Shown in pieces: positions 10,308-56,923 of a stretch of 64,000 nt of DNA. The DNA is from Patescibacteria group bacterium (GTDB lineage Bacteria > Patescibacteriota > Patescibacteriia > UM-FILTER-42-10). A program made the translations under genes and the position numbers. The notes beneath the pieces are model-generated. The model saw only the letters and a list, made by a program, of their open reading frames with translations. It ran no database searches and was not told the DNA's origin. The stretch covers positions 16,415 to 80,414 of the forward strand of contig JBAYGW010000003.1 in the NCBI GenBank assembly GCA_041666485.1, read 5' to 3'. Each line of letters opens with the position of its first letter. Within the stretch, counting starts at the first letter, position 1.

Positions 10308-10439
10308 TTGCTCAAGTGTCTTAATGATATAGCAATTTGTTACCGCCTGTCAAGTCGGGTCACAACTCCTCATAAAGCCAATCTTGACAATAACGTACTT
10401 TTGTATTACTTTCTTTGTATGTTGATCTTTGAAACAACG

Positions 10440-10660
10440 ATGTAGGTGGGAGGACCGCCGTACCAAAAAGCAAGCAGTAATGCTACCCGCTGGGTGACAT
10501 TGACTGACGGGATTCGTCTCGTCCGTGGGCAGATGTTGCCCTCTGGGATGCTAAAGTGCGCGTCCTCCCACCCCACTTTCTTCTACAAATTGCTTTGTGC
10601 GGACGCTTAAGTCCGTTTGTGATAGTCACCCCACAACCCGATCCTACAGGGAGGTACGCC
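10440..10660 (+). other. GC-rich highly structured non-coding segment (candidate leader/riboswitch-like RNA) upstream of GC-rich ORF
   Basis: 11-13 bp outer stem GGTGGGAGGAC…GTCCTCCCACC enclosing several short hairpins incl. AGCA-GUAA-UGCU (GNRA loop). Confidence 0.3.
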
Positions 10661-10760
10661 AAATGTACTCGTGGAGTTACGCACGCCACGGGTTCGGTTG
10701 ACCTGCGATCTTCTCCGTCTGAGTAGTCAATGCCCACGACTCAAAATGAGGAGATCTCGC

Positions 10761-11126
10761 ATGTGCGACAAGACCCAATGGAACGCGGGGCACGTCCTCG
10801 TCGTCCAGACCGTGTTCCCGACCGACAGCGAATCCCCCGGCGGTTTCTCGCGCAGCGTCATGTTGTGCACCTGTGGGAGCTGCCTGAGCTCCAACAACCC
10901 GATGACGCCCGCAGGGCCCCTGCACAGCTACCTGAAACGGTGCTTTGAGCAGGACGCTGCTGATGCGGTGGCGGGGGGCCTTGAGCCGCCCGTCAACCTC
11001 CTGAGCATGCCGAAGCTTGACCCGCGCACCGGCGCCGAGAAGCCGACCAAGAAGCAGGCAGCCATGCTGATCAAGCAGATCGGTCCGGACGCCTTCGCTT
11101 CCGACATCGTCGCGGCCTACGCCTAG
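10761..11126 (+). CDS. hypothetical Cys-containing protein in GC-rich island
   Basis: AGGAG RBS 7 nt upstream of ATG; strong GC3 bias; followed by clean terminator. Confidence 0.45.
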   Translation: MCDKTQWNAGHVLVVQTVFPTDSESPGGFSRSVMLCTCGSCLSSNNPMTPAGPLHSYLKRCFEQDAADAVAGGLEPPVNLLSMPKLDPRTGAEKPTKKQAAMLIKQIGPDAFASDIVAAYA

Positions 11127-11158
11127 CGTAGGAGAAGAAGTACATCGTTGAAGGACAT

Positions 11159-11192
11159 CGGGCGAATCCACTGGATTCGCCCATTTTTTTAT
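11159..11192 (+). terminator. rho-independent terminator
   Basis: GGGCGAATCCA-C-TGGATTCGCCC followed by TTTTTTT. Confidence 0.75.
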
Positions 11193-11276
11193 TATGAATA
11201 TTGACAGAAGAAGTGGAATACAATACCATTGTTAACGCCCGCTGATTGTAAGACATCCTTCATGGAGGAGGTGGAC

Positions 11277-11573
11277 ATGTCCCAAAGTCGGCTGGTGATG
11301 TTCTTAATGCTCTTTCTCGGACTGACTCTCTCTCCCCTGTTTCTTGTCGTTGCGGCGGTTATGTTCCTTGCTCCCTCGGAGCCGAAGCTCATCCCCCGGG
11401 ATGATGAAGGGAGACGTTGCTGTCCCGTCTGCCACTCCAGACACTATCTCATCTTCCCGACTCGGCAGAAGAGCTACTTCGGCCATTCCTGGATTTCAGC
11501 ATTTTGCAGAAACCAAATGGAATACCGCTACCAGGACTGCACAATGAGCTGGAAAGAATCCGGGGACGGCTAA
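11277..11573 (+). CDS. hypothetical membrane-anchored Cys-rich small protein
   Basis: GGAGGAGG RBS; N-terminal TM helix then CCPVCH…C…C. Confidence 0.4.
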   Translation: MSQSRLVMFLMLFLGLTLSPLFLVVAAVMFLAPSEPKLIPRDDEGRRCCPVCHSRHYLIFPTRQKSYFGHSWISAFCRNQMEYRYQDCTMSWKESGDG

Positions 11574-22907: not shown

Positions 22908-24497
22908 CTAGTGCCAGAACATCCGGCGATCGGTAAAGAGCATCGCGATGCCCAGTTTGTCCGCGGACCTGATTGAATCCTGGTCGCGAATTGAACCGCC
23001 CTGCTGGACGATCGTCTTGACGCCGAACGTGTCCGCCAGGCGCACGCAGTCGTCAAACGGGAAGAAGCTGTCGGACACCAGCACAGCATGGTGCAGATCC
23101 ATATTCTGCGCCTCCATGTTGTTCATGGCCTGCTCCAGAGCAAGCCGTGCCGACTTGATCCGGCTGGTCTGGCCGTTGCCGATGCCGATCGTCTGCCCGT
23201 TCCAGACCACGATGACCGAGTTGGACTTGACGTGCTTTGACACATTGCAGCCGAAACTGATATCCGACCAGTAGCGGTCCTTGACACCGAGCTTGGTGAC
23301 GCACCGGAACGACCTGCAGTCAAACAGCTCGGTGTCCATCAGCTGGACCACCATGCCGCCGGTCACCGGCTTGAAGTTCAGCGTGCCGAACGGCATGCTG
23401 CAGGAAAGCTCCCCACCCAGTTTGAACAGCGGGGTCTCTGCCCTGGCGCGCTTCTTGGTGATGTGTTCCATCGCCTCCGGCGAAAAATCCAGCGCGACGA
23501 TCGCGTCCACCTTCTGCACGCAGATGGTTTCAGCGACTTCCTCCGTCACCTGGAAGTTGAGTACCACCACCCCGCCGAAAGCCGATTCCGGATCGCACGC
23601 CAGTGCGTTCTGGAAAGCCTTCAGCGGACTGAAGCTGTCCATCGCCACTCCGCACGGCGTACCATGCTTGATGATCGCGACTGCGAATTCCGGGGACAGG
23701 TCGCGGACCGTCTCAATGCCGGCATTGATATCCAGCACAGTGGTGGCCGAGAGCGGCTTGCCCCAGATCTGCTTGGCGTTTGCCGCGGTGTAGCAGTTCA
23801 GACCCGGCAGTTCGTAGAACGCACCCGGCTGATGCGGATTCTCACCGTAGCGCAGATCACACTTCTTCTGCAGACGCTGAACCATCCGATCCGGGAAGCT
23901 GGGGAACTCAAGGCGTTCAGCCAGCCAGTCGGAGATCGTGGCGTCATACCACGCAGTGTGAAGAAACGCCTTGTAAGCCAGTTGCAGACGTTCCAGCGCG
24001 TTGAACCCGACATCTTCCGAAAGACACCGAATCACAAAGCCGTACTGCTCTGGTGAAGTGACCACCAGCACATGGCTGTGATTCTTCGCGGCCGCGCGGA
24101 TCAGTGCCACGCCGCCGATATCAATCTGCTCAATCGCGTCCCGAAATGCCACGGTCCGATCAGCCACCGTCTCTTCAAACGGATACAGGTTGACCACGAC
24201 CATGTCAAACGGGTAGATGCTGTGATCAAACAGCTCCTGCATGTGCGCGTCGCTGTCCTGATCCGCCAGGATCCCGCCGTGGATCTTCGGATGCAGAGTC
24301 TTCACCCTGCCACCCAGAATTTCCGGGAAACCGGTCACCTCCTCTACCGTTCGCACGGGAATTCCGGCTTCCACCAGGTGTCTGGACGTTCCGCCGGAAG
24401 ATACAATCTCCCAGCCATGTTCAAACAGCACGGTGGCAAGCTCAACAATGCCGCGCTTGTCGGACACGCTGATCAGAGCGCGCTGATTTGCTCGCAT
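22908..24497 (-). CDS. purH: bifunctional AICAR transformylase / IMP cyclohydrolase
   Basis: ALISVSDKRGIVELA (MGS domain), GGTSRHLVEAGIPV, KTLHPKIHGGIL; AAAGGAG RBS at chosen start; gene conspicuously GC-rich. Confidence 0.9.
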   Translation of the reverse strand: MRANQRALISVSDKRGIVELATVLFEHGWEIVSSGGTSRHLVEAGIPVRTVEEVTGFPEILGGRVKTLHPKIHGGILADQDSDAHMQELFDHSIYPFDMVVVNLYPFEETVADRTVAFRDAIEQIDIGGVALIRAAAKNHSHVLVVTSPEQYGFVIRCLSEDVGFNALERLQLAYKAFLHTAWYDATISDWLAERLEFPSFPDRMVQRLQKKCDLRYGENPHQPGAFYELPGLNCYTAANAKQIWGKPLSATTVLDINAGIETVRDLSPEFAVAIIKHGTPCGVAMDSFSPLKAFQNALACDPESAFGGVVVLNFQVTEEVAETICVQKVDAIVALDFSPEAMEHITKKRARAETPLFKLGGELSCSMPFGTLNFKPVTGGMVVQLMDTELFDCRSFRCVTKLGVKDRYWSDISFGCNVSKHVKSNSVIVVWNGQTIGIGNGQTSRIKSARLALEQAMNNMEAQNMDLHHAVLVSDSFFPFDDCVRLADTFGVKTIVQQGGSIRDQDSIRSADKLGIAMLFTDRRMFWH

Positions 24498-24589
24498 TTC
24501 TGCTCCTTTCGTGGCAAACCGTGAAGCTTTCACCGCAAACAACCGTTTGGGAAACGGTTTTTTAACTTATCACTCCGACTGACGCAAGT

Positions 24590-30001: not shown

Positions 30002-30427
30002 ATGACCAAAGCACAAATCAAGGGACATCAAGTTGTTTGTTCCGCGTTTATAGAAAGAAATAAAAGGTTTTTGATTGTCATGGATCCCAAATTCAAAGTT
30101 TGGCGGGTTCCCGGAGGCAGACCGGAGCACGGTGAAAAGCTTGAAGATACTTTGATACGAGAAATGCAGGAAGAAACAGGTATAACATTTTCCGACCCCA
30201 AATTCATCGGCTTTGGCCAGGATCAGCAGTTTAAAGTGGATGATAAACTGGAAACATCGCGTTTGATTATGTATTTTCATGTGCATACCGACCAGGAACC
30301 GGTGCTTGACCCGAACGAAGCAGAACAGCACAAATGGGTTACGCTTGACGAACTCAAGGAAATAGATTTAGATAACAAGGAAGGGGCGCTTACCGATTTT
30401 TTTAATCGTAATCCGAATTTTAAATAA
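30002..30427 (+). CDS. NUDIX hydrolase
   Basis: Nudix box GGRPEHGEKLEDTLIREMQEETGI. Confidence 0.8.
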   Translation: MTKAQIKGHQVVCSAFIERNKRFLIVMDPKFKVWRVPGGRPEHGEKLEDTLIREMQEETGITFSDPKFIGFGQDQQFKVDDKLETSRLIMYFHVHTDQEPVLDPNEAEQHKWVTLDELKEIDLDNKEGALTDFFNRNPNFK

Positions 30428-31351: not shown

Positions 31352-31789
31352 ATGTTTACAATCGGAACATTCGGCATAATCAAAGATGAAAATGAACGGG
31401 TATTACTCTGTCACCGCCGGGATTATGATTTTTGGAATCTGCCTGGAGGCGGAGTAAAAGAAAATGAAACTCCCTGGGACGCTGTAATTCGGGAAATAAG
31501 GGAAGAAACGGGACTGGAAGCTCGGATCACTCACCTCTCGGGCGTGTACAGCAAGCCGGATAAAAATGAAATTGTGTTTTCTTTTGTTTGCGAAATAGCG
31601 GGCGGGGAAACTACTTTAACTGACGAGGCGGACAAAATAGCATATTTTGAAGTTGACCAGATTCCTAAAAATACTTCCCCGAAACAAGTGGAACGGATCA
31701 AAGATTATTTTGCTGATCCATCCAAAACCCACTACAAGGCGCAAACCGGCGCGTCATCAATTGATCTGATCAAAGCGGGAAGACTTTAA
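31352..31789 (+). CDS. NUDIX hydrolase
   Basis: LPGGGVKENETPWDAVIREIREETGLE. Confidence 0.8.
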   Translation: MFTIGTFGIIKDENERVLLCHRRDYDFWNLPGGGVKENETPWDAVIREIREETGLEARITHLSGVYSKPDKNEIVFSFVCEIAGGETTLTDEADKIAYFEVDQIPKNTSPKQVERIKDYFADPSKTHYKAQTGASSIDLIKAGRL

Positions 31790-34912: not shown

Positions 34913-36415
34913 TTAGGTAATTGTAAAAATATTGATTTTTTCAATCGCTTTCTTTGCCAGTTCAATTCTTTCCCTGCGATTCGCGTAAAAAGTGAACAGT
35001 TTACTACCCTTTTTAACTTCCTGTCCAACCCTTTTGTGGAGGTAAATGCCGGCCAATTTTTCTGAAGGCGCACCTAGTGTTCTCGCAATTTCGTCAATTG
35101 CTTTATTATCTACTGCGGTTATTTTACCTGACTTTGCGGAAAGTACACGGTAATACTCACCGCCTAAGACCACTGCGTCGGAATCAATTGTAGAATTACC
35201 ACCCTGTTCCTTGATCACCACCTGCATTTTTTTCCACGCCTTACCTGATACCAGAATTTCTTCCGCAACTGATTTTCCCTTACCGCGCGCCACCTGCCCC
35301 GATATTTCCAGAAGTTTTCCCGCCAAAACCAGTGCTTTATCTTCTAAATCTTTCGGCCTGTTACTTTTTTGCTGCAATACCCGGAGAACATCGCGTGATT
35401 CCAAGGCCGGTCCAACCCCTCTGCCGACCGGTTCATTGGCAAAAATTTTTTCAACATGTATTTTAATCCCAAAACGCTTGCCAAGATACATAAACTTTTT
35501 TTCAATCTCATTCGCGGTCTTCATATCCGGAATTTTTGAGGTGATTCCGACCGGCATATCAATCACCAGATACTTGATACCCATGGCAACTTTTTTCGCC
35601 ATAATACTTACCACCATTTTATCAAACGGTTCCAAGGAGAGTGGTTTTGTCACCTGAATAATCAAATCATCCGCCGGAGCAATATTTAAACCACCGCCCC
35701 AGATCATACATACTTTGTTTTTCATCACCATTTGTTTGATTCTGGTCATGGAAAATCCGACCGGAGCCAATACTTCCATAGTATCCGCCGTACCCGACGG
35801 TGAAGTGATCGCCCGGGAGGAGGTTTTTGGAATATATAAACCAAAGGCTGCAACAATCGGAACAACAATCATAGTTGTCCTATTGCCGGCCAAACCGCCG
35901 ACGGAATGTTTATCAACTACAATTTTATTTCCGGAAAATCTCAACTGCTCGCCGGTTTCCGCAATTGATTTTGTAAGATAATACAGCTCCAGTGGAGTAT
36001 AAGGCCTTGCAAAACTAGACGCGACAAAATATGATGTTTCCACCGGTCCGAGTCTGCGGCTGACAATATCTGCTATGATTGAATGAATTTCCTCATAACT
36101 TAAAACACCGCCCTTAATTTTCTTATTAATTGCTTTTACTGATTCCGGACGTTCAACGATTGAAACCTCAATGATTTGATCTTTCTTCATCGGGTACTTC
36201 GCCCAGATCTCTTCAAAAAAACCGATCTCCCCCGGCTTTATTTCATTTTCCGCCAGGTTTACAGTAGCAAATATTCTTTTACGGTTATGCCAGGACAAAC
36301 CGATATGGTCATTAGCATGAATACCAAAATTGAGGGCTTCTTTTTCATTTAAAAGCACCTTCGGCATCTCGCCGGTTTCAATATCAATTTTTTTTGCCCT
36401 TAAATAAAATGCCAT
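34913..36415 (-). CDS. AMP phosphorylase (thymidine-phosphorylase family, archaeal DeoA-type)
   Basis: Near full-length similarity to Thermococcus AMPpase incl. HSVGGLAGNRTTMIVVPIVAA, PKTSSRAITSPSGTADTMEV. Confidence 0.85.
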   Translation of the reverse strand: MAFYLRAKKIDIETGEMPKVLLNEKEALNFGIHANDHIGLSWHNRKRIFATVNLAENEIKPGEIGFFEEIWAKYPMKKDQIIEVSIVERPESVKAINKKIKGGVLSYEEIHSIIADIVSRRLGPVETSYFVASSFARPYTPLELYYLTKSIAETGEQLRFSGNKIVVDKHSVGGLAGNRTTMIVVPIVAAFGLYIPKTSSRAITSPSGTADTMEVLAPVGFSMTRIKQMVMKNKVCMIWGGGLNIAPADDLIIQVTKPLSLEPFDKMVVSIMAKKVAMGIKYLVIDMPVGITSKIPDMKTANEIEKKFMYLGKRFGIKIHVEKIFANEPVGRGVGPALESRDVLRVLQQKSNRPKDLEDKALVLAGKLLEISGQVARGKGKSVAEEILVSGKAWKKMQVVIKEQGGNSTIDSDAVVLGGEYYRVLSAKSGKITAVDNKAIDEIARTLGAPSEKLAGIYLHKRVGQEVKKGSKLFTFYANRRERIELAKKAIEKINIFTIT

Positions 36416-36480
36416 GATTAGTAATTCGTAATTAGCAATTGGTAATTAGTAATTAGCAACGTGTAATTCGCTGTATAATG
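36416..36480 (-). promoter_or_regulatory. tandem AATTAC-repeat array in leader of AMP phosphorylase gene
   Basis: cgAATTACacgttgctAATTACtAATTACcaattgctAATTACgAATTACtaatcATG (read toward gene); near-identical array before guaB. Confidence 0.35.
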
Positions 36481-36516
36481 CCGTATGTACAGGTCTGATA
36501 TTAAGATGTAAAAAAA

Positions 36517-37800
36517 TTACTTATCCCCATCCTTCCAATGTCTGAGCGCAACGGCTAACTCTCCGTGGTCTTTGGCATACTCATCCAGATCAATCCCCGC
36601 AAGCGTCGCGTCTAATGCCTGTTTAACGGCTGTCGCTCCGGCAAATGTTCCTTCCGGATGACCATGGATACCCCCGCCAAAATTCAGAATTACATCTTTG
36701 CCGAATATTTTATAAAGCGAAGGTATTAAATTGGGATACAACCCGCCTGATGCGATCGGGAATGTTGATTTAATATTAAACCACTTACTGCGCAGAAAAT
36801 CATCTATTTCAACTACATCACTTTTTCCACCCTCCATTTTCCCCACAACCGTGCCGGTGTGCAGCTGATCAATACCTGCCAGACGCGCCAATTTTGACAG
36901 CACTAGCATACTCATTCCATGTTTTTGGTTCTTAGTGAACATAGAATGCCCAGCTCTGTGACCGTGAATTATAAGACCTAAATCCCGTTTGCGTAACATT
37001 TGCACATTATCAAGTCCTACGGAAACCATGTCAATCATTACCACTTCACCGCCGAGGCTTTTGACCAGCTGCGCTCTTTTGATCATTTCATCCGGTTGTG
37101 CTGTTACATTAAACACGCACAATTTTTTGCAGCCTGTTTCTTTTTCCGCTTTATCCCTCATTTTAAGAGTAAGCCGGACTCGCTGATCAAATCGGCTGAA
37201 AGAAAGGTCGGTTAAATTTTCATCATCTTTGACCAGATCAATTCCACCGATAAAGACCTGGTAAGACAGTGTGGCATGCTGCAGAGCGGACAAGCCCAGC
37301 TTTGGTTTCAGAATTGATCCCAGTATGGGCCGGTCATAAATTCCCATAATGCGCCTGATCCCTTTTATGCCGAAACGCGGGCCCTGAAAACTTTCAACAT
37401 ATTCTTTCGGAAAGTCTACATCCACTAATCTGAGATTCCTTATGATCTTCATACTAAAAACATTACCCGCCACACCGGATAAAAATTGCGGGATGCTCCC
37501 CTTTTCAAAAAGCGCCAAGGGATAGGCAACTTTGAATGTATGGGCTTTTTTATCAATATCATATGCTTTCGCGCTCAGCTTCGTGAATGTTGCTTTGGAT
37601 AATGTGGCAAGATCCGTCCAGGTTCCAATAGAAGATTCCGCCGCCACTCCGCCCGCCGCATCGTTAAAATCAACATTGGTATCCATATAGAATGAAGCGA
37701 CAAGTTCTGTTTTCTTCGGCTGATAGCTTTTTTTTACAAATTTTTGGTAAAATTTATTCATATTATAGATTCTTGAAAATCCATGGATAATGCTTTTCAA
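36517..37800 (-). CDS. rbcL: ribulose-1,5-bisphosphate carboxylase large subunit, form II/III
   Basis: KPKLG carbamylation site, GGIDLVKDDEN, IHGHRAGHSMF, GGGIHGHP; alternative start at 37761. Confidence 0.88.
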   Translation of the reverse strand: MKSIIHGFSRIYNMNKFYQKFVKKSYQPKKTELVASFYMDTNVDFNDAAGGVAAESSIGTWTDLATLSKATFTKLSAKAYDIDKKAHTFKVAYPLALFEKGSIPQFLSGVAGNVFSMKIIRNLRLVDVDFPKEYVESFQGPRFGIKGIRRIMGIYDRPILGSILKPKLGLSALQHATLSYQVFIGGIDLVKDDENLTDLSFSRFDQRVRLTLKMRDKAEKETGCKKLCVFNVTAQPDEMIKRAQLVKSLGGEVVMIDMVSVGLDNVQMLRKRDLGLIIHGHRAGHSMFTKNQKHGMSMLVLSKLARLAGIDQLHTGTVVGKMEGGKSDVVEIDDFLRSKWFNIKSTFPIASGGLYPNLIPSLYKIFGKDVILNFGGGIHGHPEGTFAGATAVKQALDATLAGIDLDEYAKDHGELAVALRHWKDGDK

Positions 37801-38719
37801 CTAAATAAGCAACATCACGTGGCTTAATAATACCAAATTCACAAATTATTCCTTTGATGAATTTAGATGGAATGCGGTCAAAAGCGAAATTGATTATTTT
37901 TAATCCTTTCGGACCGTTCGGCCAGATTTCTTTGCGATCCCGCAATTCAATGCCAACATATTTGCTGATAAATGTTTCCGGATCGGTTTTTAAAAGTGAA
38001 GCGGCGACATAAACCGGAATTTTTTCGTGGTTAGCAACCTGGGCGATTCCGTAGCTACCGACTTTGTTGATCACTGAGCCGCCGGATGTAACCGAGTCTG
38101 CACCCAAAAAAGCAATATCCACCATCACTTCCCGGCCACTGGTTCTGCTGATCAGAAAAGCGGCAGCTGAATCAGCCACCATTGTGACGTCAATCTTTCG
38201 CTTTAATAGATTCTTAGCTGTTATTCGCCCCTGGAAAAGCGGGCGGGTTTCTGTACAAAAAACATGCGGCATCTTTGAATGTTTATTAGCCTCAGTAATA
38301 ATATGCTCCACAGTTGAAGAATGGCAGTGCGTGAATACTTTCATATCTTGCTTAATCAGTTTTGCGCCGGCTACGGCAATTTTTTGATCATGATATTTCA
38401 GCAAAACTAAAAAAAGATGGCAAGCTTTTTTTAGCAACTTCGCCAACTCAGGCACGGATAAACCTTCTTTATTATTCTCTAAATAATGTAAAACGAATTG
38501 GACTGAATTACGGGACAGCGGTTCGGTCGGCCTTGCTTCCGCCAAGGCTTTGCCACTTTTACGAATAGCAGAAAGAAACTGGCTTTTATTTTTTTTTAGC
38601 AATTGATTACTTTCCAACTGCAACGCGTCCAAAATTACTTTGGTTATCTGCGTTGCACCCTGTATTTCTAAAGATGCTATTTTTGTTACTGTTTTTTGTA
38701 CTGCGCTATTCATAAACAC
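37763..38719 (-). CDS. ribose-1,5-bisphosphate isomerase (eIF-2B alpha/beta/delta family)
   Basis: e2b2-family core …VTMVADSAAAFL…FLGADSVTSGGSVINKVGSYG. Confidence 0.72.
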   Translation of the reverse strand: MFMNSAVQKTVTKIASLEIQGATQITKVILDALQLESNQLLKKNKSQFLSAIRKSGKALAEARPTEPLSRNSVQFVLHYLENNKEGLSVPELAKLLKKACHLFLVLLKYHDQKIAVAGAKLIKQDMKVFTHCHSSTVEHIITEANKHSKMPHVFCTETRPLFQGRITAKNLLKRKIDVTMVADSAAAFLISRTSGREVMVDIAFLGADSVTSGGSVINKVGSYGIAQVANHEKIPVYVAASLLKTDPETFISKYVGIELRDRKEIWPNGPKGLKIINFAFDRIPSKFIKGIICEFGIIKPRDVAYLVEKHYPWIFKNL

Positions 38720-38734
38720 AGTATACCATTTATA

Positions 38735-40558
38735 TCATTCCCATTCAATCGTCCCTGGCGGCTTGTTGGTGAAATCAAAAACAATCAAATCTATTTGTTT
38801 TATTCTTTTTAAGCGTCCGACAACCTGGTCAATAAAAGATCGGGACAACGGGAAATACTTGACCGTCATTGCTTCCTCCGATTGCACGGGGCGCAAAATT
38901 ACTGTGTAGCCGCCCGCAATGGAATATGGGGCCAGGATTACGGGAAATTGCCAGATTTTAGAATCCAGTCGGGCTTTTTTCATTTCAGACTGTACTATGT
39001 CGTCAATATTCTGCAGTAGAGCCACGTTTTTTTTCGTCAGCAGAAGTTTAATATTTTTTCCTCCGCTAATATCTTTTTTCCTGCTAAAAATCACCCAGCA
39101 CACCCGATTTACATTTTGAATCTGATTTGCCACGAGCGGACCGAGCTTTTGCATTTGAATAGTATTCATTTCTCCGGAGAAAACCGCGGGATGGGCGTAA
39201 GTCCGTTCATCGCCCTGAACGCCCACACTTCTGACCGGTAGTACCCAGCCTTTAATATCTGATTTGTTCTCATAATTGAACTGCGAGATTATTATATCCA
39301 AATCGGCATTTTCTTTCTTTACATTTACATGCACCTTATTTCCCCGGGAACAAATTATACGGATTGCCAACCCCGGACCGGGAAATGGATGACGATTGAT
39401 AATTTCTCCAGGCAAGCCGATCTGCTTGCCGAGCTGCCGTACTTCGTCTTTGTACAAGTCTTTCAAAGGCTCAATGACCAACCCGCGTTTTATTAATTCC
39501 AAAACTTCTTTTACCCGATTATGGTGTGTTTTTATTTTATCGGCGTGCTTCGTCCCGCCCGATTCAATTGTATCCGGATAAATAGTCCCCTGCGCCAGAA
39601 TCCATTCCTTTGGATTCAGTTTGAATTTCTTCATCGCAATTCTTTGAACATCCAGATACGTCCTGCCGATAATCTCGCGTTTGCGTTCCGGACTGATAAT
39701 ACCTTTTAACCTCTTATAGAATAGTACGGAAGCATCCATTACTTCCAGATTGGTAAACCCTAGTTTATTGAAACGTTTTTTTATTTCCTCTGATTCATTT
39801 TTTCTCATGAACCCCAGATCAATATGCAGACCAAACACCTTTTCTTTGCCCAAGATCCGATTCAGTAACCCGAAACATACGGCAGAATCAACTCCGCCGG
39901 AAACCAGCAAAAATACCTTGCGACTTCCTACTTTCCTAACTATCTCTTTTTCAATATCAGTTAAGTAATGTTTAATATCCCATTCCTTTTTAGCGCCGCA
40001 GATACTGAAAACAAAGTTATTAATTAATTCCATTCCACGTTCTGTATGTGATACTTCGGGGTGAAACTGGACTCCGTATATTTTCATTATGCTGTTTCCC
40101 ATCGCTGCTACCGGGCAATCAGCAGTCTTTGCCATGACTTTAAATCCCTTCGGCACATTTAATACAAGATCACCATGACTCATCCAAACCTGTTCGTTTG
40201 CACCAAATTTCCTGAACAGCTTGCCGGGTTCAATTACTGACAGGTTGGCAAAACCATATTCTCTCACATCACCCCTGACTACTTTTCCGCCCATTAGATA
40301 GGTGATCAGTTGGTGACCATAGCAAACACCTAGGATTGGTACGCCGCTTTTCAGTATTCTCCGGTCAAATTTTATTTTCCCGTCATAAACGCTGTTTGGT
40401 CCGCCGGACAGGATTATTCCCCAGGACGACCTTAATTCTTCAAGTGGCGTTTCGGGATTGTAAATATTAGCTAAAACACCAAGTTGCCGGATTCTGCGTG
40501 CAATCAGGTGGGTATATTGTGAACCAAAATCCAGAATTGTTATGTGTTTTTGTTTCAT
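38735..40558 (-). CDS. guaA: GMP synthase (glutamine-hydrolysing)
   Basis: GATase ILDFGSQYTHLIARRIR, PP-loop SGGVDSAV, C-terminal …IEWE; 607 aa (longer than usual). Confidence 0.9.
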   Translation of the reverse strand: MKQKHITILDFGSQYTHLIARRIRQLGVLANIYNPETPLEELRSSWGIILSGGPNSVYDGKIKFDRRILKSGVPILGVCYGHQLITYLMGGKVVRGDVREYGFANLSVIEPGKLFRKFGANEQVWMSHGDLVLNVPKGFKVMAKTADCPVAAMGNSIMKIYGVQFHPEVSHTERGMELINNFVFSICGAKKEWDIKHYLTDIEKEIVRKVGSRKVFLLVSGGVDSAVCFGLLNRILGKEKVFGLHIDLGFMRKNESEEIKKRFNKLGFTNLEVMDASVLFYKRLKGIISPERKREIIGRTYLDVQRIAMKKFKLNPKEWILAQGTIYPDTIESGGTKHADKIKTHHNRVKEVLELIKRGLVIEPLKDLYKDEVRQLGKQIGLPGEIINRHPFPGPGLAIRIICSRGNKVHVNVKKENADLDIIISQFNYENKSDIKGWVLPVRSVGVQGDERTYAHPAVFSGEMNTIQMQKLGPLVANQIQNVNRVCWVIFSRKKDISGGKNIKLLLTKKNVALLQNIDDIVQSEMKKARLDSKIWQFPVILAPYSIAGGYTVILRPVQSEEAMTVKYFPLSRSFIDQVVGRLKRIKQIDLIVFDFTNKPPGTIEWE

Positions 40559-40644
40559 ACTTGTCTTTATTGTAAAATATACTTACAATTAAAACAACAT
40601 TTTAACCCTAATCCCTTGTCCCTACTACCTAACTTCGCATATTA

Positions 40645-40705
40645 CCAGGTAGAGATTACGAATTACCAAATTGCCAATTACTAATTACTAGTTCCTAAAC
40701 CCTAA
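40645..40705 (+). promoter_or_regulatory. tandem AATTAC-repeat array in guaA/guaB divergent region, immediately before guaB
   Basis: gagATTACgAATTACcaaattgccAATTACtAATTACtag…ATG. Confidence 0.35.
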
Positions 40706-40711
40706 AAAAAT

Positions 40712-42187
40712 ATGTTTACCCAGTTTGAAGAAACATTAACATTTGATGATGTATTGTTAGTTCCGCAAAAGTCATCAATTCTTCCGAATGAAACCGAGAT
40801 TAAAACCAGGCTGACACGCAGGATAAATTTAAATATTCCATTAATCTCATCCCCGATGGACACTGTAACCGAACACCGGCTGGCGATCGCCCTGGCACTG
40901 CACGGCGGAATCGGGATAATTCATAAAAATATGCCTGCCGACAAACAGGCGCAGGAAGTAAGTTTTGTAAAAAGATTTGAAAACGGCTTTATTGAAAATC
41001 CTGCCACACTGCAGCCGGAAGATCCGATTGATGACGCGGCGGAAATTAGAGACAAAAAAGGATACAAAAAAATTCCGATTGTTGATAAAAACAACAAGCT
41101 GGTGGGAATGATTACCGAGCAGGATTATTTCGTGCCCGACGATTTGAAACTGCCGATAAAATTTAAAATGAAACGTTTGAATGAAATTGTGGTCGCTAAG
41201 CACGGCATCACCCTCCAACAAGCAAATAAAATTATTAGGGAGAAAAAGCTCACCGCATTGCCGATCGTTAATAAGCAGGGAAAACTGGTTAGTATGGTTA
41301 CCAGAAAAGATTTGGAAAAAAACGAGCAGCACCCCAATGCCTGCAAGGATGATAAAAAACAACTGCGGGTCGGTGCCGCTATTTCCGTCGGCCCGGAAGC
41401 TCTGGAACGCGCCAAATATTTGGTTGCCGCCGGAGTAGATGTATTGGTCGTTGATACCGCTCACGGCCATACTAAGGGCGTATTGGATACGGTAAGAGCG
41501 CTGAAAAAAAATAAATTGTTTTCTAATATTGATATCATCGCCGGGAATGTCGCAACAGAAGAAGGAACCAGAGATCTGATCAGGGCTGGTGCGGACGCTG
41601 TAAAGGTAGGGGTCGGGCCGGGATCAATCTGTACCACCAGAGTAATTGCGGGGATCGGTGTACCACAAATCAGCGCGATTCTGGCGGCGGTAAAAGGCCG
41701 GGGTAAATCCAATATTCCCATTATTGCTGACGGCGGTATCCGATACTCAGGCGATATAGTAAAAGCACTTGGTGCTAAAGCGGATTCCGTAATGATCGGC
41801 AGTCTTTTTGCCGGTTGTGAAGAAACACCAGGTGAAATAGAGTATGAAGGTGGCAAAATGTATAAATCCTACCGCGGGATGGGTTCAAAAGAAGCCATGA
41901 TCCACGGATCCAAAGACCGTTACGGACAGGGAGAGCAAAAAGACAGTGAAAAACTGGTGCCGGAAGGTGTATCAGCCAGGGTTATTTATAAAGGGCTGGT
42001 TTCAAGACACATATATCAGTTGATCGGCGGGATTAGATCCGGTATGGGTTATATCGGCTCTAAAACAATTTCGGAGTTGCACAGGAAAGCAAGATTTATT
42101 AAAATCAGCTCTGCGGGACTGCGAGAAAGTCATCCACATGATGTAACAATTACAAAACAGCCGCCAAATTATCATTCGGAAAAATAA
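40712..42187 (+). CDS. guaB: IMP dehydrogenase
   Basis: [13 protein letters not shown] pair, [11 protein letters not shown] catalytic loop. Confidence 0.92.
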
Positions 42188-42231
42188 TAAACAAAAGACG
42201 GATTTCACATCCGTCTTTTTAATTCGCTCTA

Positions 42232-43737
42232 TTAAATTCTTTTTCTCAACTTCATGTGCGCCTGTTGCAACTGCGTCAAAAGACTCGTTTCGTTGATAAA
42301 ATTATGCTTACGATTAGAAATAACAAAATTCCCGTTAATCATCAGATCCCTGATATTTCTACCCCCATACGTAATCATATTACTGACCAATGTCTTCGGG
42401 TCATTTGAATTGTACGGTAAGAATCCGCGATCCTGCAGTTTCCAGAACGCGATATCCGCCCGATATCCCGGCAGTATTTTGCCGACTTTTGGCAATCCCA
42501 ACAGTTTCGCACCTTGTGCAGTAATCATATTGAATAAATCACTATAGGGAACGATTTTTTTGTTTTGATGCATCGTTTTAGTCTGTAGCGCTTCCGTAAG
42601 CAAATCCAGCCTGTTTTTACTGACCACGCTGTCCGTTCCCAAGGCAATCTGTTTGGTTGCTTTAATCTTATGAAATAACGGATAATCAAACTGACCGCTA
42701 CGGTGCAGAAGATTGGATGTCGGCAGATGCACAACCCCGACCCTTCTTTTCTGAATTAATTCTACATCTTCCCTGCCCACATGCACGACATGCGACATCA
42801 TGGTCCTGGGATTTAATAGTCCAAACCGATCCAATACTTTCACCGGATGTTCTCCAAATTTTTTCATTGACTTCTCCAATGACTCCTTAGTTTCCGCGAC
42901 ATGGATCGTAAACAATGCATTATACTTTTTCTGAAGCAATCTAACTTTTTTAAAAATTGCCGGCGATGCCTTGTGCGGTTCATGGATCGCAATTGCGGGC
43001 TCCGTATGATATTTTGCTTTATTCTTCAGATATCTTTCAACCATTGCCGGAGTATTTTCCGGATGCGAGTTGCTCACCGCACTGACAGCATTAATCACTT
43101 CATGACCGGTTAGTTTTCCCGCATCGTCAATCGGTTCAAACACTCCATAGTGGCTAAGCGTTGTTGATATGCCGAACTTTTGTTGTTCAGTAAAATCCCC
43201 TACTGCCCCCAGAAAAAAATCGTCCTCAGTCATTTTCCCTTCTAACCTTGCCATACCTTTCAGTGTCTTTTCTAAATTCGCTTCGGAAAATGTTAATGTG
43301 GATCTGAGTAGATACATCGGGGGATGTGCGTGTGCATTAACTAACCCGGGGGTAACAACTATTCCACCGCCGAGCTCGGCATCATAAATTAGGTCAATCT
43401 CGGTTAAATCAACAAAAGATAATTCAGTTGCTTTTAATACTTTTACTATCACTCCATCCTCAATCAGAATTGATCGTCCGGATACAACCTCTAATTTTTC
43501 ATTCTCATTGATGGTAATTAAAAAGGGAATTCCGTGAATTAGAATTTTTCTCGGATTCCCTTCGCGCAACAAAGTATACCTGTTTTTCCCTTTCTGGCCA
43601 GCAGCAAAATTAATATCTTTCTGCCGATATTCAATCTCGCTTTTAAGTTCGGAAAACTCGTTTCTCATTTGCTTGATATTATAACAGGATTTGCTTTTTT
43701 GCCCAAATTGCGTGAGCTGCGACCATTTCATCCTCAT
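42232..43737 (-). CDS. amidohydrolase (MtaD/SsnA/guanine-deaminase-like nucleobase/nucleoside deaminase)
   Basis: PGLVNAHAHPPMYLLR metal-binding HxH region. Confidence 0.62.
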   Translation of the reverse strand: MRMKWSQLTQFGQKSKSCYNIKQMRNEFSELKSEIEYRQKDINFAAGQKGKNRYTLLREGNPRKILIHGIPFLITINENEKLEVVSGRSILIEDGVIVKVLKATELSFVDLTEIDLIYDAELGGGIVVTPGLVNAHAHPPMYLLRSTLTFSEANLEKTLKGMARLEGKMTEDDFFLGAVGDFTEQQKFGISTTLSHYGVFEPIDDAGKLTGHEVINAVSAVSNSHPENTPAMVERYLKNKAKYHTEPAIAIHEPHKASPAIFKKVRLLQKKYNALFTIHVAETKESLEKSMKKFGEHPVKVLDRFGLLNPRTMMSHVVHVGREDVELIQKRRVGVVHLPTSNLLHRSGQFDYPLFHKIKATKQIALGTDSVVSKNRLDLLTEALQTKTMHQNKKIVPYSDLFNMITAQGAKLLGLPKVGKILPGYRADIAFWKLQDRGFLPYNSNDPKTLVSNMITYGGRNIRDLMINGNFVISNRKHNFINETSLLTQLQQAHMKLRKRI

Positions 43738-44713
43738 TTTTAATTAATAGCTCAATGGAAGGTAGCGCTTCCACACTCCCCCAATTCCCCAGGGCAACCG
43801 CTACATTTCTCATGAATCCGCGATATTTTGTTCTCTTTATCGGGCTGTTTTTGAATCTAGCCATAAAATCCTCTGCAGATAATTTTGCCAAATCTACTAG
43901 AGACGGGGCGATTAAATCTTCATGGGCAGTAAATTCTTGAAATGACGTTGGTAATGATTTGCTGTTCCAAGGGCAAACCTCCTGACAAATATCACAGCCG
44001 TAAATTCTATTTTTCATAAGCTTGCGAAATTCTACTGGTATTTCATTTTTTAATTCTATCGTAAGATATGAAATACAACGCCTAGCATCAAGCACCTTGT
44101 TTGCCACCAACGCTCCGGTAGGACAGCTCTTTCTGCATCGCTGGCAGGTTCCGCATGATCCAATCAGTTTATTTACATAACTGTCTAATTCTATATCTAT
44201 TAATATCTCACCCAGAAATATATATGAACCGGTTCTGTAATTTATCAAATTAGTGTTGTTGCCAGTAAATCCTAATCCTGCGCGCTCAGCAAACTCCCTT
44301 TCCAAAAAAGGCCCCGTATCAACATACATCTTTGCGCTGACATTTTTTTTCATCACAACTGAAATGGCTTCAACATATTTTTCCAGTCTCGTTTTAACTA
44401 TCTTGTGATAGTCGTCAAACCACGCATAGCGGGCAATGATTCCTCTTGAAGGATCATTTAGTAATTCAGCCGGGATATCCTGCGTAAAATAACTTACCCC
44501 AACCATAATAATTGATTTTGCTTGGGGAAATATTTTTCTCGGATCTTCGCGTTTTTCCTGGCCGCGCCGGATCCAATCCATATCCCCCGCCATTCCTAAG
44601 CTTATCCACTGGTCAAGTTGACGTTTTTGTTTGCTGGGCTGTACCGGTATTATTCCAAGCAAATCAAAACCTAGTTTTTTTCCGGCATTATGAATACTGC
44701 GAGTAATTTCCAT
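43679..44713 (-). CDS. queG: epoxyqueuosine reductase
   Basis: Two ferredoxin-type Cys clusters CGTCQRCRKSCP / CDICQEVCPWN. Confidence 0.75.
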   Translation of the reverse strand: MEITRSIHNAGKKLGFDLLGIIPVQPSKQKRQLDQWISLGMAGDMDWIRRGQEKREDPRKIFPQAKSIIMVGVSYFTQDIPAELLNDPSRGIIARYAWFDDYHKIVKTRLEKYVEAISVVMKKNVSAKMYVDTGPFLEREFAERAGLGFTGNNTNLINYRTGSYIFLGEILIDIELDSYVNKLIGSCGTCQRCRKSCPTGALVANKVLDARRCISYLTIELKNEIPVEFRKLMKNRIYGCDICQEVCPWNSKSLPTSFQEFTAHEDLIAPSLVDLAKLSAEDFMARFKNSPIKRTKYRGFMRNVAVALGNWGSVEALPSIELLIKNEDEMVAAHAIWAKKQILL

Positions 44714-44835
44714 ATGAATATTTTAGCAATTAATGGGATATTAGCACAATTGAATTGACACCCGTCAAATTTGAGCCTAAACTCTATATGGCCTGAAAAG
44801 CCATTTGTTCATTGTCACCGGCTCAACACCAGAAA

Positions 44836-45267
44836 GGAGCAGACATGGACTTGAAAAAAGTCCGGCAAATAGTCAGCCTGCTCCAAGAGCATCCAACTAT
44901 TGCCGAGCTGGAAGTAAGGAACACGATGGGATTTGAAAAAATCCTGATCCGGAGGTCTCCTCCGATCATCCCCGAGAGTCAGACACAAGCAACAGTTGTA
45001 CTGGCACGACCGACCTTTTTCATCACCGCTCCGGATGTCGGATGGTACCTGGCCGCTGCCGATCTGGAGAAAAATCCGCCGCTTACCAAGGGCAGTTTTG
45101 TTTCCCAGGGCGAAATCGTGGGTTACATTGAAAACCACGGAATTCGGAATGAAGTCGTTGCGGAATTCGCCGGGACAGTCATGCATGTACATGCTGAAAC
45201 CGGTAAACCGGTGGAGTACGACCAGAAGCTGTACACAATCTTACTTTCCGAACCTTCCAGATGCTAA
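44836..45267 (+). CDS. BCCP-like (AccB homolog) protein lacking the biotinylation lysine
   Basis: N-terminus MDLKKVRQIV…AELEV parallels AccB; C-terminal hybrid-barrel aligns but EAMKM is ENHGI. Confidence 0.6.
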   Translation, partial: GADMDLKKVRQIVSLLQEHPTIAELEVRNTMGFEKILIRRSPPIIPESQTQATVVLARPTFFITAPDVGWYLAAADLEKNPPLTKGSFVSQGEIVGYIENHGIRNEVVAEFAGTVMHVHAETGKPVEYDQKLYTILLSEPSRC

Positions 45268-45364
45268 TTACCTGCTCATTTCGTCAAGCGCAATGCTTGA
45301 TGTTTTTTTTAATTCCAATATGCGATATAATAGCTTAAACAAGATATTACACGTATAATATAAA

Positions 45365-46486
45365 ATGATTAAAGCCATCATATTTGATTTCGGGAACGTT
45401 ATAGCCAGTTTTGACAATGGTTTATTTTTGAAAAAAATTTCCAAATATACCAGTAAATCTATTGACAAGTTGTATGAACTAATCTATAAAAAATCAAAAC
45501 TGCCAAGCCAATACGAACAGGGAAAAATTAACTCCGATGAATTTTACAACCAAGTTGTAAAACTATGTGATCTGAAAATCAGTCAGATACAATTTAGAGA
45601 CGCCTATACTCAGATATTCACACCGATTCCGGAAACAATTGAGCTGATTAATGCACTTAAGCCAAATTATAAGCTGGGGCTTTTATCCAGCACCAGCGAG
45701 TGGGATTTTGAATTTGGATTCAAACCGCTAATTGATGTGTCTATTTTTGATTCAATTACATTAACCTATCAGCTAGGAATTAAAAAACCGGATCCGAAAT
45801 TATTTCACGATGCTTTAAATAAACTGAGTGTTGCCCCAAACGAAACTGCCTATATTGATGATCTCCCGGAAACAATTGAAGTAGCCAATAATCTGGGTAT
45901 TCATGGAATATTATTTACCGGTAATGACACCCTGCAAGCATCACTGCATAAACTGGGGGTTGAAGTTAATAATACCTACCGCCCGAATTATGTGCAAAAA
46001 GTTACGATAGCTGACGAGAATGACAAAAAAATTGGATACAAATACCGGGATCAAATCACAGAGACAGATATTTTTCGGGCGACCGGCTTGTGGATTACCA
46101 ATTCAAAAGGCGAAATACTTTTAGCCCGAAGAGCACTGTCAAAAAAAATGCATCCGGGATTATGGAGTACCGCCGTTGCCGGAACAGTTGAAGAAGATGA
46201 AACATACGAACAAAATGTAATCAAAGAAGCTGAAGAGGAACTTGGTATCGTTGGCGAAACTTTTATTCCGTATGAAAAAACCAGAATCCGAGGAAAACAC
46301 AATTTCTTCATCCAATGGTACACTTTAGTCATAAATAAAAAAGCTGAGGAATTCATGTTGCAACCAGAGGAAGTGGTTGAAGTAAAATGGTTCAAAAAAT
46401 CCGAGCTAAAATTGTTGCTGAAAGAAAAACCGGAAATATTTACGTCTTCGCTGCCTCAGTGGGTATCTTTATTCCTGGCGAAATAG
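45365..46486 (+). CDS. HAD-superfamily hydrolase fused to C-terminal NUDIX domain
   Basis: HAD motif I IIFDFGNVI, motif IV YIDD; Nudix box GTVEEDETYEQNVIKEAEEELGI. Confidence 0.7.
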   Translation: MIKAIIFDFGNVIASFDNGLFLKKISKYTSKSIDKLYELIYKKSKLPSQYEQGKINSDEFYNQVVKLCDLKISQIQFRDAYTQIFTPIPETIELINALKPNYKLGLLSSTSEWDFEFGFKPLIDVSIFDSITLTYQLGIKKPDPKLFHDALNKLSVAPNETAYIDDLPETIEVANNLGIHGILFTGNDTLQASLHKLGVEVNNTYRPNYVQKVTIADENDKKIGYKYRDQITETDIFRATGLWITNSKGEILLARRALSKKMHPGLWSTAVAGTVEEDETYEQNVIKEAEEELGIVGETFIPYEKTRIRGKHNFFIQWYTLVINKKAEEFMLQPEEVVEVKWFKKSELKLLLKEKPEIFTSSLPQWVSLFLAK

Positions 46487-50658: not shown

Positions 50659-51093
50659 TTGATGGAAATAAAACAATTCACCGCCACCAAAGCGTTTATC
50701 AAATATAACGGTAAAATTCTGATTCTCCGTGAATCAGGAAAATATGAAGACGGAACTAATATGGGATATTATGATATTCCCGGTGGCAGAGTGAAGCCCG
50801 GGCAAAGGTTTGACGAAAGCTTGAGGAGGGAAATTAAAGAAGAAACCGGATTGAATATTGCGATCGGTGAACCGTTTTTTGTGAGTGAATGGCGACCGGA
50901 AAAAAACGGCGAGCAGTGGCAGATTGTCGGGATCTTTTTTGAATGTCAGGCGGACATTGACCGAGTGATTTTAAGCAATGATCACGACAAATACGAGTGG
51001 ATTGATCCAAAAGAATATATCAAATTTAAACTTATTGATAACTTAAAGCCGGCATTTAAGAGTTATAATCAGCGTCAAACAGTTAATCAATAA
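50659..51093 (+). CDS. NUDIX hydrolase
   Basis: IPGGRVKPGQRFDESLRREIKEETGL. Confidence 0.8.
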   Translation: MMEIKQFTATKAFIKYNGKILILRESGKYEDGTNMGYYDIPGGRVKPGQRFDESLRREIKEETGLNIAIGEPFFVSEWRPEKNGEQWQIVGIFFECQADIDRVILSNDHDKYEWIDPKEYIKFKLIDNLKPAFKSYNQRQTVNQ

Positions 51094-55653: not shown

Positions 55654-55810
55654 ACCGTCTTATTGTACCAAATATCAATGTTTCTGGCGACTTGTCATTA
55701 CAGTCACGTAGCAACCCTGACTTGCCAGAGTAAATGAAATATGGTAAAAACAAAACTGTGCCCATCTTCAGGGCGCAAATGACCAAAACCCGTTTTTGGG
55801 AGGTATTGGT

Positions 55811-56923
55811 ATGGACCAACGATTTGTCGATCTGGCGAGAGTCATGGTCGGCCATTCCACAAGGGTCTCAAAGGACGATATCGTCATCGTCAAGAGCACG
55901 GAGGTAGTGCCGCCCGACATGATCTTCGCGGTGATCCAGACCGTGCGCGAAGCGGGGGGCTCCGTGATCCCCTGGCGCTACGATCCGCGCATTGACTTCG
56001 AGGCATTCAGGGGTGGCACCGCTCACCAGCTGCGTGCCTGGGGCGCCGGCCAGTTTACCCAACTGGCTGCCGCCAACTGCTTCATTGAGTTCCGGCCGTT
56101 CAGTAACCAGCTCGACGGCAACGACGTGCCGGCAGCGGACATGCAGCGCCACGGCGAGGTGTTCGTTCCGCTGACGGTTGAACAGCGCGTGGAACGCACC
56201 CGCTGGGTGCTGACCCGCTGGCCGACGCCGGCCAACGCCCAGTTGGCCGGGATGTCCACGACGCAGTTCGAAGAGTTCTTCTTCAAGGCATGCCTCGCCG
56301 ACTACGGCGCCATGGCCAAGGCCGTGAAGCCGCTCGTCGCCCTGATGGAGCGGACCGACCAGGTCCAGATCCAAGGGCCGGGCGACACCGATCTCACTTT
56401 CAGCATCAAGGGAATTCCGATCATCGCCTGTACCGGATCGCACAACATCCCCGACGGCGAAGTGTTCACGGCGCCGGTTCGCGATTCCATGAACGGCGTG
56501 ATCGCCTACAACACCCCCACGGTCAACTCCCGCGGCCAGCGGTTCACCAATCTCCGCTTCGTGGTCAAGGCGGGCAAGATCGTGGAGGCGACCTGCGAGA
56601 CGGGTGACCAGACGGCGCTGGACGCCTTCCTGGACACCGACGAGGGTGCCCGCTACTTCGGCGAATTCGCCCTCGGCATCAACAACTTCGTCACGGGTGT
56701 GATCGGCGAAACGCTGTTCGACGAGAAGGTCGGTGGAAGCCTCCACTTGACGCCCGGCCGGTGCTATGAGCAAGCGCCGAACGGGAACCAGTCGGCCAAC
56801 CACTGGGACATCGTCTGCGATCAGCGCGGGGCTTCCGGTGGTGGGGAGATCTACTTCGACGGCAAGCTGGTCCGCAGCAAAGGGCTTTTCATCCCGAAGA
56901 GCCTCCACGCGCTCAATCCCTGA
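55811..56923 (+). CDS. M29-family aminopeptidase (aminopeptidase T/AmpS-like), GC-rich
   Basis: NIPDGEVFTAP, LDTDEGARYFGEFALG match Thermus aminopeptidase T; GGGAGG RBS; antisense 364-aa ORF has no motifs. Confidence 0.8.
   Translation: MDQRFVDLARVMVGHSTRVSKDDIVIVKSTEVVPPDMIFAVIQTVREAGGSVIPWRYDPRIDFEAFRGGTAHQLRAWGAGQFTQLAAANCFIEFRPFSNQLDGNDVPAADMQRHGEVFVPLTVEQRVERTRWVLTRWPTPANAQLAGMSTTQFEEFFFKACLADYGAMAKAVKPLVALMERTDQVQIQGPGDTDLTFSIKGIPIIACTGSHNIPDGEVFTAPVRDSMNGVIAYNTPTVNSRGQRFTNLRFVVKAGKIVEATCETGDQTALDAFLDTDEGARYFGEFALGINNFVTGVIGETLFDEKVGGSLHLTPGRCYEQAPNGNQSANHWDIVCDQRGASGGGEIYFDGKLVRSKGLFIPKSLHALNP

Follow-up and report, generated by a model that had tools for sequence, protein, structure and literature searches.

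The window analyzed here, a 64-kb stretch of DNA from a Patescibacteria (candidate-phyla-radiation) bacterium, carries on its plus strand a gene for a 140-residue homolog of the biotin carboxyl carrier protein (BCCP, AccB) of acetyl-CoA carboxylase (ACC) that lacks the biotinyl-lysine. The positions of the gene, its domains, and its flanking signals are collected in Table 1. In the source records, the annotations of family members do not go beyond "biotin carboxyl carrier protein," "biotin/lipoyl-containing protein," or "hypothetical protein." Translation starts at an ATG at position 44845, with an AAAGGAG Shine-Dalgarno sequence just 5' of it; the start at 44836 given by the sequence-only reading is the first G of the Shine-Dalgarno core and had to be moved. 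Among the orthologs, the indels 5' of this ATG are not multiples of three, so this stretch is noncoding and a longer TTG-initiated reading frame at 44812 is not used. The syntenic order comprises AMP phosphorylase, type III RuBisCO, R15P isomerase, GuaA / GuaB / deaminase-family amidohydrolase, QueG, and the lysine-less gene. In the orthologous loci the gene is divergent from queG and the upstream block is constant; two lineages have another gene between queG and the lysine-less gene.

Table 1. Features of the lysine-less BCCP locus, with positions numbered from the first nucleotide of the window
Feature	Position	Strand	Basis
Sigma-70-type promoter, TTGACA-17 nt-TAAACT	44755..44783	+	Consensus scan, 10/12 matches
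Putative structured mRNA element, 5' leader and codons 1-25	44812..44920	+	Codon constraint, RNAalifold
Predicted helix P1, CCGGCUC with GAGCUGG	44818-44824 with 44905-44911	+	RNAalifold
Predicted helix P2, Shine-Dalgarno GGAGCAG with CUGCUCC	44836-44842 with 44878-44884	+	RNAalifold
Predicted helix P3, UGGACU with AGUCCG	44846-44851 with 44859-44864	+	RNAalifold
CDS, lysine-less BCCP homolog (140 codons and stop)	44845..45267	+	Intact in all orthologs; whole-gene pairwise omega 0.14-0.42
N-terminal BCCP-type domain, residues 1-38	44845..44958	+	hhalign 98.7%; AlphaFold2 helix plus beta-hairpin; pN 0.15, pS 0.45, omega ~0.24
Short flexible linker, residues 39-57	44959..45015	+	AlphaFold2 pLDDT <50 (residues 39-54); pN 0.48, pS 0.67, omega ~0.8 (near neutral)
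Biotinyl-domain-like barrel-sandwich domain with thumb, residues 58-134	45016..45246	+	PF00364, Foldseek; pN 0.25, pS 0.70, omega ~0.15
Hairpin tip E96-N97-H98-G99-I100 in place of E-A-M-K-M	45130..45144	+	phmmer alignment, family alignment
Intrinsic terminator, 9-bp stem, 3-nt loop, T8	45282..45310	+	GCTTGATG then T8

The gene is flanked by its own expression signals. The -35 (ATTGACA) and -10 (TAAACTC) elements of the promoter were unchanged in all eight orthologous loci, and only about 40 nt separate the queG start codon from the -35 box. The terminator, GCTTGATG followed by T8, was invariant in the five inner-clade loci that were aligned through it. The gene beyond the terminator differs by lineage, being a HAD-NUDIX fusion in the window, NUDIX alone in L009, and a glyoxalase-SDR-HAD-HAD series in L015; in view of this variability and of the conserved intervening terminator, an operon partner was rejected, and none is conserved. 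The gene is monocistronic: its promoter is close to consensus, its Shine-Dalgarno sequence is strong, and it is followed by an intrinsic terminator of its own. A separate GATATAAT box was noted 3' of the terminator and 5' of the next gene. The possibility that the protein belongs to a defense system was dismissed, as PADLOC gave no hits.

The relationship to BCCP was examined for the two halves of the protein. The Pfam Biotin_lipoyl model (PF00364) matched residues 60-132 with E = 1.3e-7 and 31.8 bits, above the 22.1-bit cutoff, and the best NCBIfam match was to TIGR00531 (BCCP) with 54.4 bits and E = 1.9e-14, a score that does not reach the equivalog cutoff of that model (115.2 bits). When PDB sequences were searched with phmmer, the matches were the E. 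coli BCCP chains 4HR7, 1A6X, and 1BDO; the alignment to E. coli BCCP ran without gaps over residues 59-131, and the thumb has the same length in the two proteins. For the N-terminal half, an hhalign comparison of residues 1-40 of the family to the N termini of 120 canonical BCCPs returned a probability of 98.7% and E = 2.7e-16. The AlphaFold2 model had a mean pLDDT of 74.8, rising to 87-89 over most of the C-terminal domain; it placed a helix at residues 3-15 and strands at residues 21-26 and 29-34 in the N-terminal part, left residues 39-54 of the linker disordered, and was of lower confidence for the thumb segment at residues 71-80 (pLDDT 64). The best Foldseek matches in the PDB were 1BDO, 9A87 (Arabidopsis BCCP1), and 4HR7, all of them BCCP biotinyl domains, with TM scores of about 0.85 normalized to the target. 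The AccB homology that had been proposed for both regions from the sequence is thus borne out by Pfam, TIGR00531, phmmer, hhalign, and Foldseek. The protein keeps the full BCCP architecture, with an N-terminal docking/oligomerization domain, a flexible tether, and a thumb-bearing biotinyl fold; in E. coli BCCP the N-terminal domain docks on biotin carboxylase and mediates oligomerization. The two-domain layout, linker, and equal-length thumb are shared with bacterial BCCP/AccB (TIGR00531; 1BDO, 4HR7), from which the homolog departs in several other respects. It is smaller (140 residues, versus 156 in E. coli BCCP), its short linker is rich in Ser/Thr/Gln, not in Pro/Ala, and varies in length and sequence between orthologs, and its gene does not adjoin accC. 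The family's thumb and the strand next to it (motif VGW[YF]LAA.DLEENPPL) are unlike those of canonical BCCPs and, together with the hairpin, form the best-conserved part of the C-terminal domain.

In the ungapped phmmer alignment, Gly99 occupies the position of the biotinyl Lys122 of E. coli BCCP, and the position of Met121 is taken by His98. The AlphaFold2 model is in agreement, as the beta-hairpin turn that joins strands 91-97 and 100-105 consists of His98-Gly99. The replacement of E-A-M-K-M by E-N-H-G-I was a claim of the sequence-only reading, and it holds in both the alignment and the modeled turn. That reading had also proposed to look for an alternative alignment with a lysine at the tip; residues 94-102 contain no lysine, so no such alignment can bring one there, and other placements of a lysine at the hairpin were rejected. 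We infer from the sequence that the protein is not biotinylated. Across the family, lysine is absent from this column in 8 of 8 other clusters, with glycine in seven and arginine in one (P0014). The hairpin motifs are E-x-H-G-[IL] in P0001-5, ESLGM in P0163, EALGM in P0164, and EALRI in P0014, and in the series that they form, canonical EAMK[ML] comes first, the outgroup motif EAL[GR][MI] next, and the inner-clade motif ExHG[IL] last. Over all 272 BCCP-family sequences that were collected, the column holds lysine in 247 and another residue in 25, the latter being the eight family clusters, P0143, and 16 scattered unrelated metagenomic proteins. As read from these motifs, the loss of the lysine predates the divergence of the lineages of the clade and is old and fixed.

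Searches of large protein cluster collections indicated how far the family extends. Only five close relatives (61-99% identity), all with E-x-H-G-[IL], were retrieved from 5.8 billion protein clusters. When 1.84 billion cluster representatives were searched with a profile, only two matches fell below 1e-30, the next ones, at 74 bits, being ordinary BCCPs. A second profile search, of the 5.8-billion-cluster database, brought in P0163 and P0164 besides P0014, and its scores dropped from 186 bits to 97 bits; P0143, which scored 168 bits in this search, had been among the rows of the alignment used as the query. All eight orthologs, on Patescibacteria contigs and MAGs, lie at the same syntenic position, and this common position identifies the family members as orthologs. 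By these sequence comparisons, the family is narrow and distinct and is confined to one syntenic Patescibacteria clade. One related Patescibacteria contig measures 1.18 Mb. The closest canonical BCCPs belong to lineages other than the candidate phyla radiation, such as Bryobacteraceae, with 38-42% identity over the C-terminal half.

Rates of substitution were compared among the orthologs. The whole-gene pairwise omega of the lysine-less gene exceeds that of the neighboring genes (0.02-0.13). The domains are not alike in this regard (Table 1), and the biotinyl-like domain is under purifying selection. Synonymous sites are near saturation in the C-terminal half and in the neighboring genes, and the N-terminal domain shows unusually little synonymous change.

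The low synonymous divergence at the 5' end was followed at the level of codons. For residues shared by pairs of orthologs, the fraction encoded by the same codon was 0.79-0.83 in codons 1-30, compared with 0.41-0.59 over the remaining codons and 0.45-0.51 for five neighboring genes. Of 13 degenerate codons for invariant residues in codons 1-30, eight were kept as the same codon in seven lineages, compared with 122 of 1416 in the neighboring genes (Fisher p = 3e-6), and the 5' untranslated region is conserved across the orthologs as well. Nucleotide-level constraint on the 5' untranslated region and codons 1-30 is an observation that is new here. Coding in another frame does not account for this pattern, since in L001 and L008 an in-frame stop interrupts the +2-frame open reading frame at 44805-44936, and antisense coding was discarded because the open stretches are inconsistent in frame and extent across lineages; a net 1-nt indel in the untranslated region also shifts the antisense frame. 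RNAalifold predicted three nested helices in the leader (P1-P3; Table 1), and the leader of the window folds at -34.3 kcal/mol with z = -3.0 versus shuffles. The single-sequence minimum-free-energy fold contains an inner helix other than the pairing of the Shine-Dalgarno sequence with its complement. No compensatory pairs were found in the leader helices, for which shuffles score equally well; where pairs vary, the changes are one-sided and mostly wobble-compatible. From these predictions, a leader RNA structure that would sequester the Shine-Dalgarno sequence is plausible. A known RNA family was ruled out for the leader, which had no Rfam match at the gathering score and only chance-level matches at E up to 10, and a repeated regulatory motif was likewise ruled out, the leader motifs being unique in the window. 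The constrained leader/coding element is a candidate new cis-regulatory RNA. The conservation of the N-terminal amino acid sequence is weaker evidence of protein docking because the same codons are nucleotide-constrained, and part of that conservation may be a by-product of the RNA or DNA constraint.

The constrained 5' end also bears on the base composition of the gene, which had been described as moderately GC-enriched and is so (50.6% GC versus 40.5% for the window, and GC3 of 0.55 versus a median of 0.39). In the orthologs the GC content of the gene is 45-53%, compared with 36-41% for their loci. GC1 is high (0.52-0.62). The GC3 of the N-terminal part is 0.55-0.74 in eight of eight orthologs and involves the same codons as the nucleotide constraint; that of the C-terminal part is elevated (0.48-0.57) only in the inner His-Gly clade, the outgroups being at background (0.33-0.42). 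The enrichment is thus the sum of the constrained 5' element, a high GC1, and an inner-clade C-terminal GC3. As a simple signature of horizontal transfer it is ambiguous, given the background C-terminal GC3 of the outgroups, and either a transferred accB or a vertical remnant is compatible with the origin of the gene. The window also contains clearly foreign-looking GC-rich genes.

Partners of a carboxylase were sought around the gene. Pfam scans of the window from 1 to 33 kb and from 42 to 64 kb detected no Biotin_carb, CPSase_L_D2, Carboxyl_trans, or BPL_LplA_LipB domain, and for the interval of about 33-45 kb the Pfam annotation already computed for the syntenic loci was used. Neither an ACC subunit nor a biotin ligase was found in the 64-kb window or the ~20-kb flanks fetched for the orthologous loci, so the proposal that no other ACC subunit lies nearby stands over this range. 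Peregrinibacteria genomes lack fatty-acid and biotin pathways, and Patescibacteria in general lack fatty-acid synthesis (PMC4736985). In a cultured Patescibacterium, Minisyncoccus archaeiphilus, an orphan AccC is retained (PMC12281837), for which reason the absence of a biotin carboxylase-type partner cannot be assumed in the host of the lysine-less protein. The M. archaeiphilus case shows that single ACC subunits can persist in Patescibacteria genomes without complete fatty-acid synthesis (PMC12281837). It differs from the lysine-less protein in that AccC is an ATP-grasp subunit, not a carrier, and belongs to another lineage.

That a lysine-less BCCP is under selection, has strong expression signals of its own, and has no carboxylase nearby argues for a biotin-independent function of the BCCP fold. 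We lean toward the reading that the protein is a functional, non-biotinylatable descendant of BCCP which acts as a binding or adaptor subunit and whose translation is controlled by its leader; this modest preference rests mostly on the protein being non-biotinylated and functional and less on the identity of its partner. Such a protein, with no prosthetic group, could not shuttle CO2, and it would most likely be a non-catalytic binding or adaptor subunit. Its contacts would be made through BCCP surfaces, namely the N-terminal domain and the strongly conserved thumb/hairpin face, with a partner encoded elsewhere that is possibly a biotin carboxylase-like ATP-grasp enzyme. [quoted passage not shown] Initiation of translation is probably controlled by an mRNA structure that pairs the Shine-Dalgarno sequence with codons 12-14. 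In function the protein would parallel the plant BADC proteins. A more specific version, in which the cell is free of both biotin and ACC and the BCCP fold either has been repurposed as an adaptor for a non-carboxylase partner or serves an orphan biotin carboxylase-like ATP-grasp partner, with translational autoregulation through binding of a previously undescribed leader that spans the Shine-Dalgarno sequence and the first 25 codons, we regard as quite unlikely as a whole; such an adaptor might work in the purine, queuosine, or nucleotide-salvage module next to the gene.

Three other explanations were weighed against the adaptor reading. The protein could be regulatory or autoregulatory, with its BCCP-type N-terminal domain binding its own structured leader or the promoter region shared with queG and the carrier domain persisting as a vestigial or sensing module. 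[quoted passage not shown] The E. coli effect has no known mechanism, however, no nucleic acid-binding motif is known in BCCP, and an intervening gene separates queG from the lysine-less gene in two lineages; moreover, an omega of ~0.15 for the C-terminal domain is unexpected in a vestigial module. We consider this explanation unlikely. The same low omega stands against the gene being a decaying relic, that is, a functionless remnant of accB left after the loss of ACC or after transfer of accB alone. A relic would be in keeping with the typical absence of fatty-acid synthesis and biotin-dependent pathways in Patescibacteria (PMC4736985), with a TIGR00531 score well under the BCCP equivalog cutoff, and with a whole-gene omega above that of the neighbors. 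Yet the reading frame is intact in eight of eight orthologs, in lineages whose neighboring genes are synonymously saturated, conservation extends to the promoter, the Shine-Dalgarno sequence, and the terminator, and streamlined genomes of ~1.2 Mb seldom retain dead genes, which makes decay very unlikely.

The third explanation holds that the protein is still a carrier and has exchanged its chemistry, with phospho- or carboxy-histidine, non-covalently bound biotin, or a metal on the hairpin and thumb. In favor of such a carrier, the swinging-arm layout of tether and domain has been kept, the inner clade shows no variation at His98-Gly99, and no part of the C-terminal domain is better conserved than the thumb/hairpin face. 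The histidine is not family-wide, however, as the outgroups have Leu-Gly or Leu-Arg in place of His-Gly, and a conserved Cys/His cluster is absent. We know of no precedent for altered chemistry in a BCCP-like protein and judge this explanation to be highly improbable.

Returning to the adaptor reading, the closest analogs are the plant BADCs, which are BCCP homologs without the AMKL motif that are not biotinylated and that modulate BC-BCCP assembly non-catalytically via protein contacts (PMC11926652, PMC12706156). Like them, the lysine-less protein is a BCCP homolog without the biotinylation motif. The BADCs occur alongside BC, BCCP, and carboxyltransferase and have that complex as their target, whereas none of these components was found in the window or flanks analyzed here, and the host is a reduced Patescibacteria genome rather than a plant. 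The nearest canonical relatives of the family are bacterial BCCPs, which suggests that the lysine was lost independently of the plant BADCs. The likeness to BADCs drawn earlier therefore survives in part: a non-catalytic interaction role is the most reasonable one, as an analogy only, and no biotin carboxylase was present in the window or flanks for such a role to act on. Should the host genome encode no biotin carboxylase, carboxyltransferase, or biotin ligase at all, there could be no BADC-like role on a carboxylase, and a partner of another kind would be required. In the literature that we found, a role for non-biotinylated BCCP paralogs has been demonstrated only in plants (the BADCs). Knowing the partner could show how a process with no previous link to BCCP is regulated in these symbionts and could also explain the persistence of orphan ACC subunits in Patescibacteria. 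The locus is a clean case of a carrier fold outliving its cofactor in a minimal genome, with a candidate cis-regulatory RNA alongside; no long-standing question hinges on it.

Loss of the lysine was also seen sporadically in metagenomic BCCP-like proteins outside the family, which number 17 of the 272 collected sequences (P0143 and 16 others, besides the eight family clusters). In these proteins (e.g., P0143, P0017, P0026, P0085, and P0139) G, R, N, Q, S, or M stands where the hairpin lysine would be. They have the BCCP architecture, yet score only 58-71 bits against the family profile, as ordinary BCCPs do, and their genomic contexts differ from that of the family, one gene following efp and another following a gene for an MGDG-synthase-like glycosyltransferase. 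P0143 (EALGL) comes from a genome that is candidate-phyla-radiation-like and has an AMP phosphorylase gene within 3 kb; its thumb is shortened and its score against the family profile is 58 bits, and on these sequence features we count it as a case apart or a very distant one.

Across seven to eight lineages, synonymous sites are kept in the 5' UTR and codons 1-25 of the BCCP-like gene, which encodes the homologue with glycine in place of the biotinyl-lysine (Fisher p = 3e-6). Nested helices are predicted to be possible in this element, with the Shine-Dalgarno sequence paired with codons 12-14. No Rfam match was obtained for the element, and no covariation was detected in the predicted helices in these 7-8 lineages. 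We consider the element a candidate gene-specific translational control element.

Absence of the biotinyl-lysine was also observed for 16 unrelated metagenomic BCCP-like proteins (P0017, P0023, P0026, P0047, P0057, P0067, P0068, P0070, P0074, P0079, P0085, P0092, P0133, P0139, P0153, and P0156), which carry R, N, Q, G, S, or M at that position. On examination of loci L011 and L012, one of these genes was located downstream of efp, a common position for accB, and another downstream of a gene for an MGDG-synthase-like glycosyltransferase. Lysine-less BCCP paralogues may be a recurrent, undescribed bacterial phenomenon. Besides the protein of the window, a second lysine-less BCCP-like protein, P0143, has a shortened thumb, is present in 27 sample blocks, and belongs to a different genome that is candidate-phyla-radiation-like in appearance; its gene is solitary amid small hypothetical genes, with mnmA adjoining and an AMP phosphorylase gene ∼3 kb away.

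The synteny of the nucleotide-salvage and purine block was kept in every relative fetched. Its amidohydrolase is a deaminase-like member of the TRZ/ATZ family, and its type III RuBisCO scores 512 bits, exceeding the TIGR03326 cutoff. The immediate downstream neighbor of the BCCP-like gene is a HAD-NUDIX fusion, one of four NUDIX-domain genes inside 21 kb; its counterpart in the outgroup locus L009 is NUDIX only, and glyoxalase-SDR-HAD-HAD takes its place in L015. The 211-residue zinc-finger protein is kept beside the BCCP-like locus in most fetched relatives, and in L013 the PF23477 domain forms a fusion with a TrwB/DUF87 ATPase.

Features of the window and of the P0143 loci
Feature	Position	Strand	Description
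~1-kb GC-rich region	about 10400-11500	both open	GC up to 0.66
purH	22908-24542	-	GC 0.59, GC3 0.76
NUDIX-domain gene	30002-30427
NUDIX-domain gene	31352-31789
Nucleotide-salvage/purine block	34913-44713		AMP phosphorylase, type III RuBisCO, R15P isomerase, GuaA, GuaB, amidohydrolase, QueG
5' UTR and codons 1-25, BCCP-like gene	44812-44920	+	synonymous-site conservation
NUDIX-domain gene	45365-46486
Zinc-finger protein, 211 aa	47615-48250	-	two treble-clef repeats (PF23477), Lys-rich tail
NUDIX-domain gene	50659-51093
M29 aminopeptidase gene	55796-56923	+	GC 0.63, GC3 0.84
P0143	L013/L014, 7001-7402		hairpin E-A-L-G-L

Three stretches are strongly GC-rich in comparison to the 40% GC of the window. 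The ∼1-kb region contains open frames at 10671-11126 (+) and 10677-11171 (-), with no Pfam match on either strand. Together with purH and the M29 aminopeptidase gene, it looks like a recent horizontal acquisition from high-GC donors.
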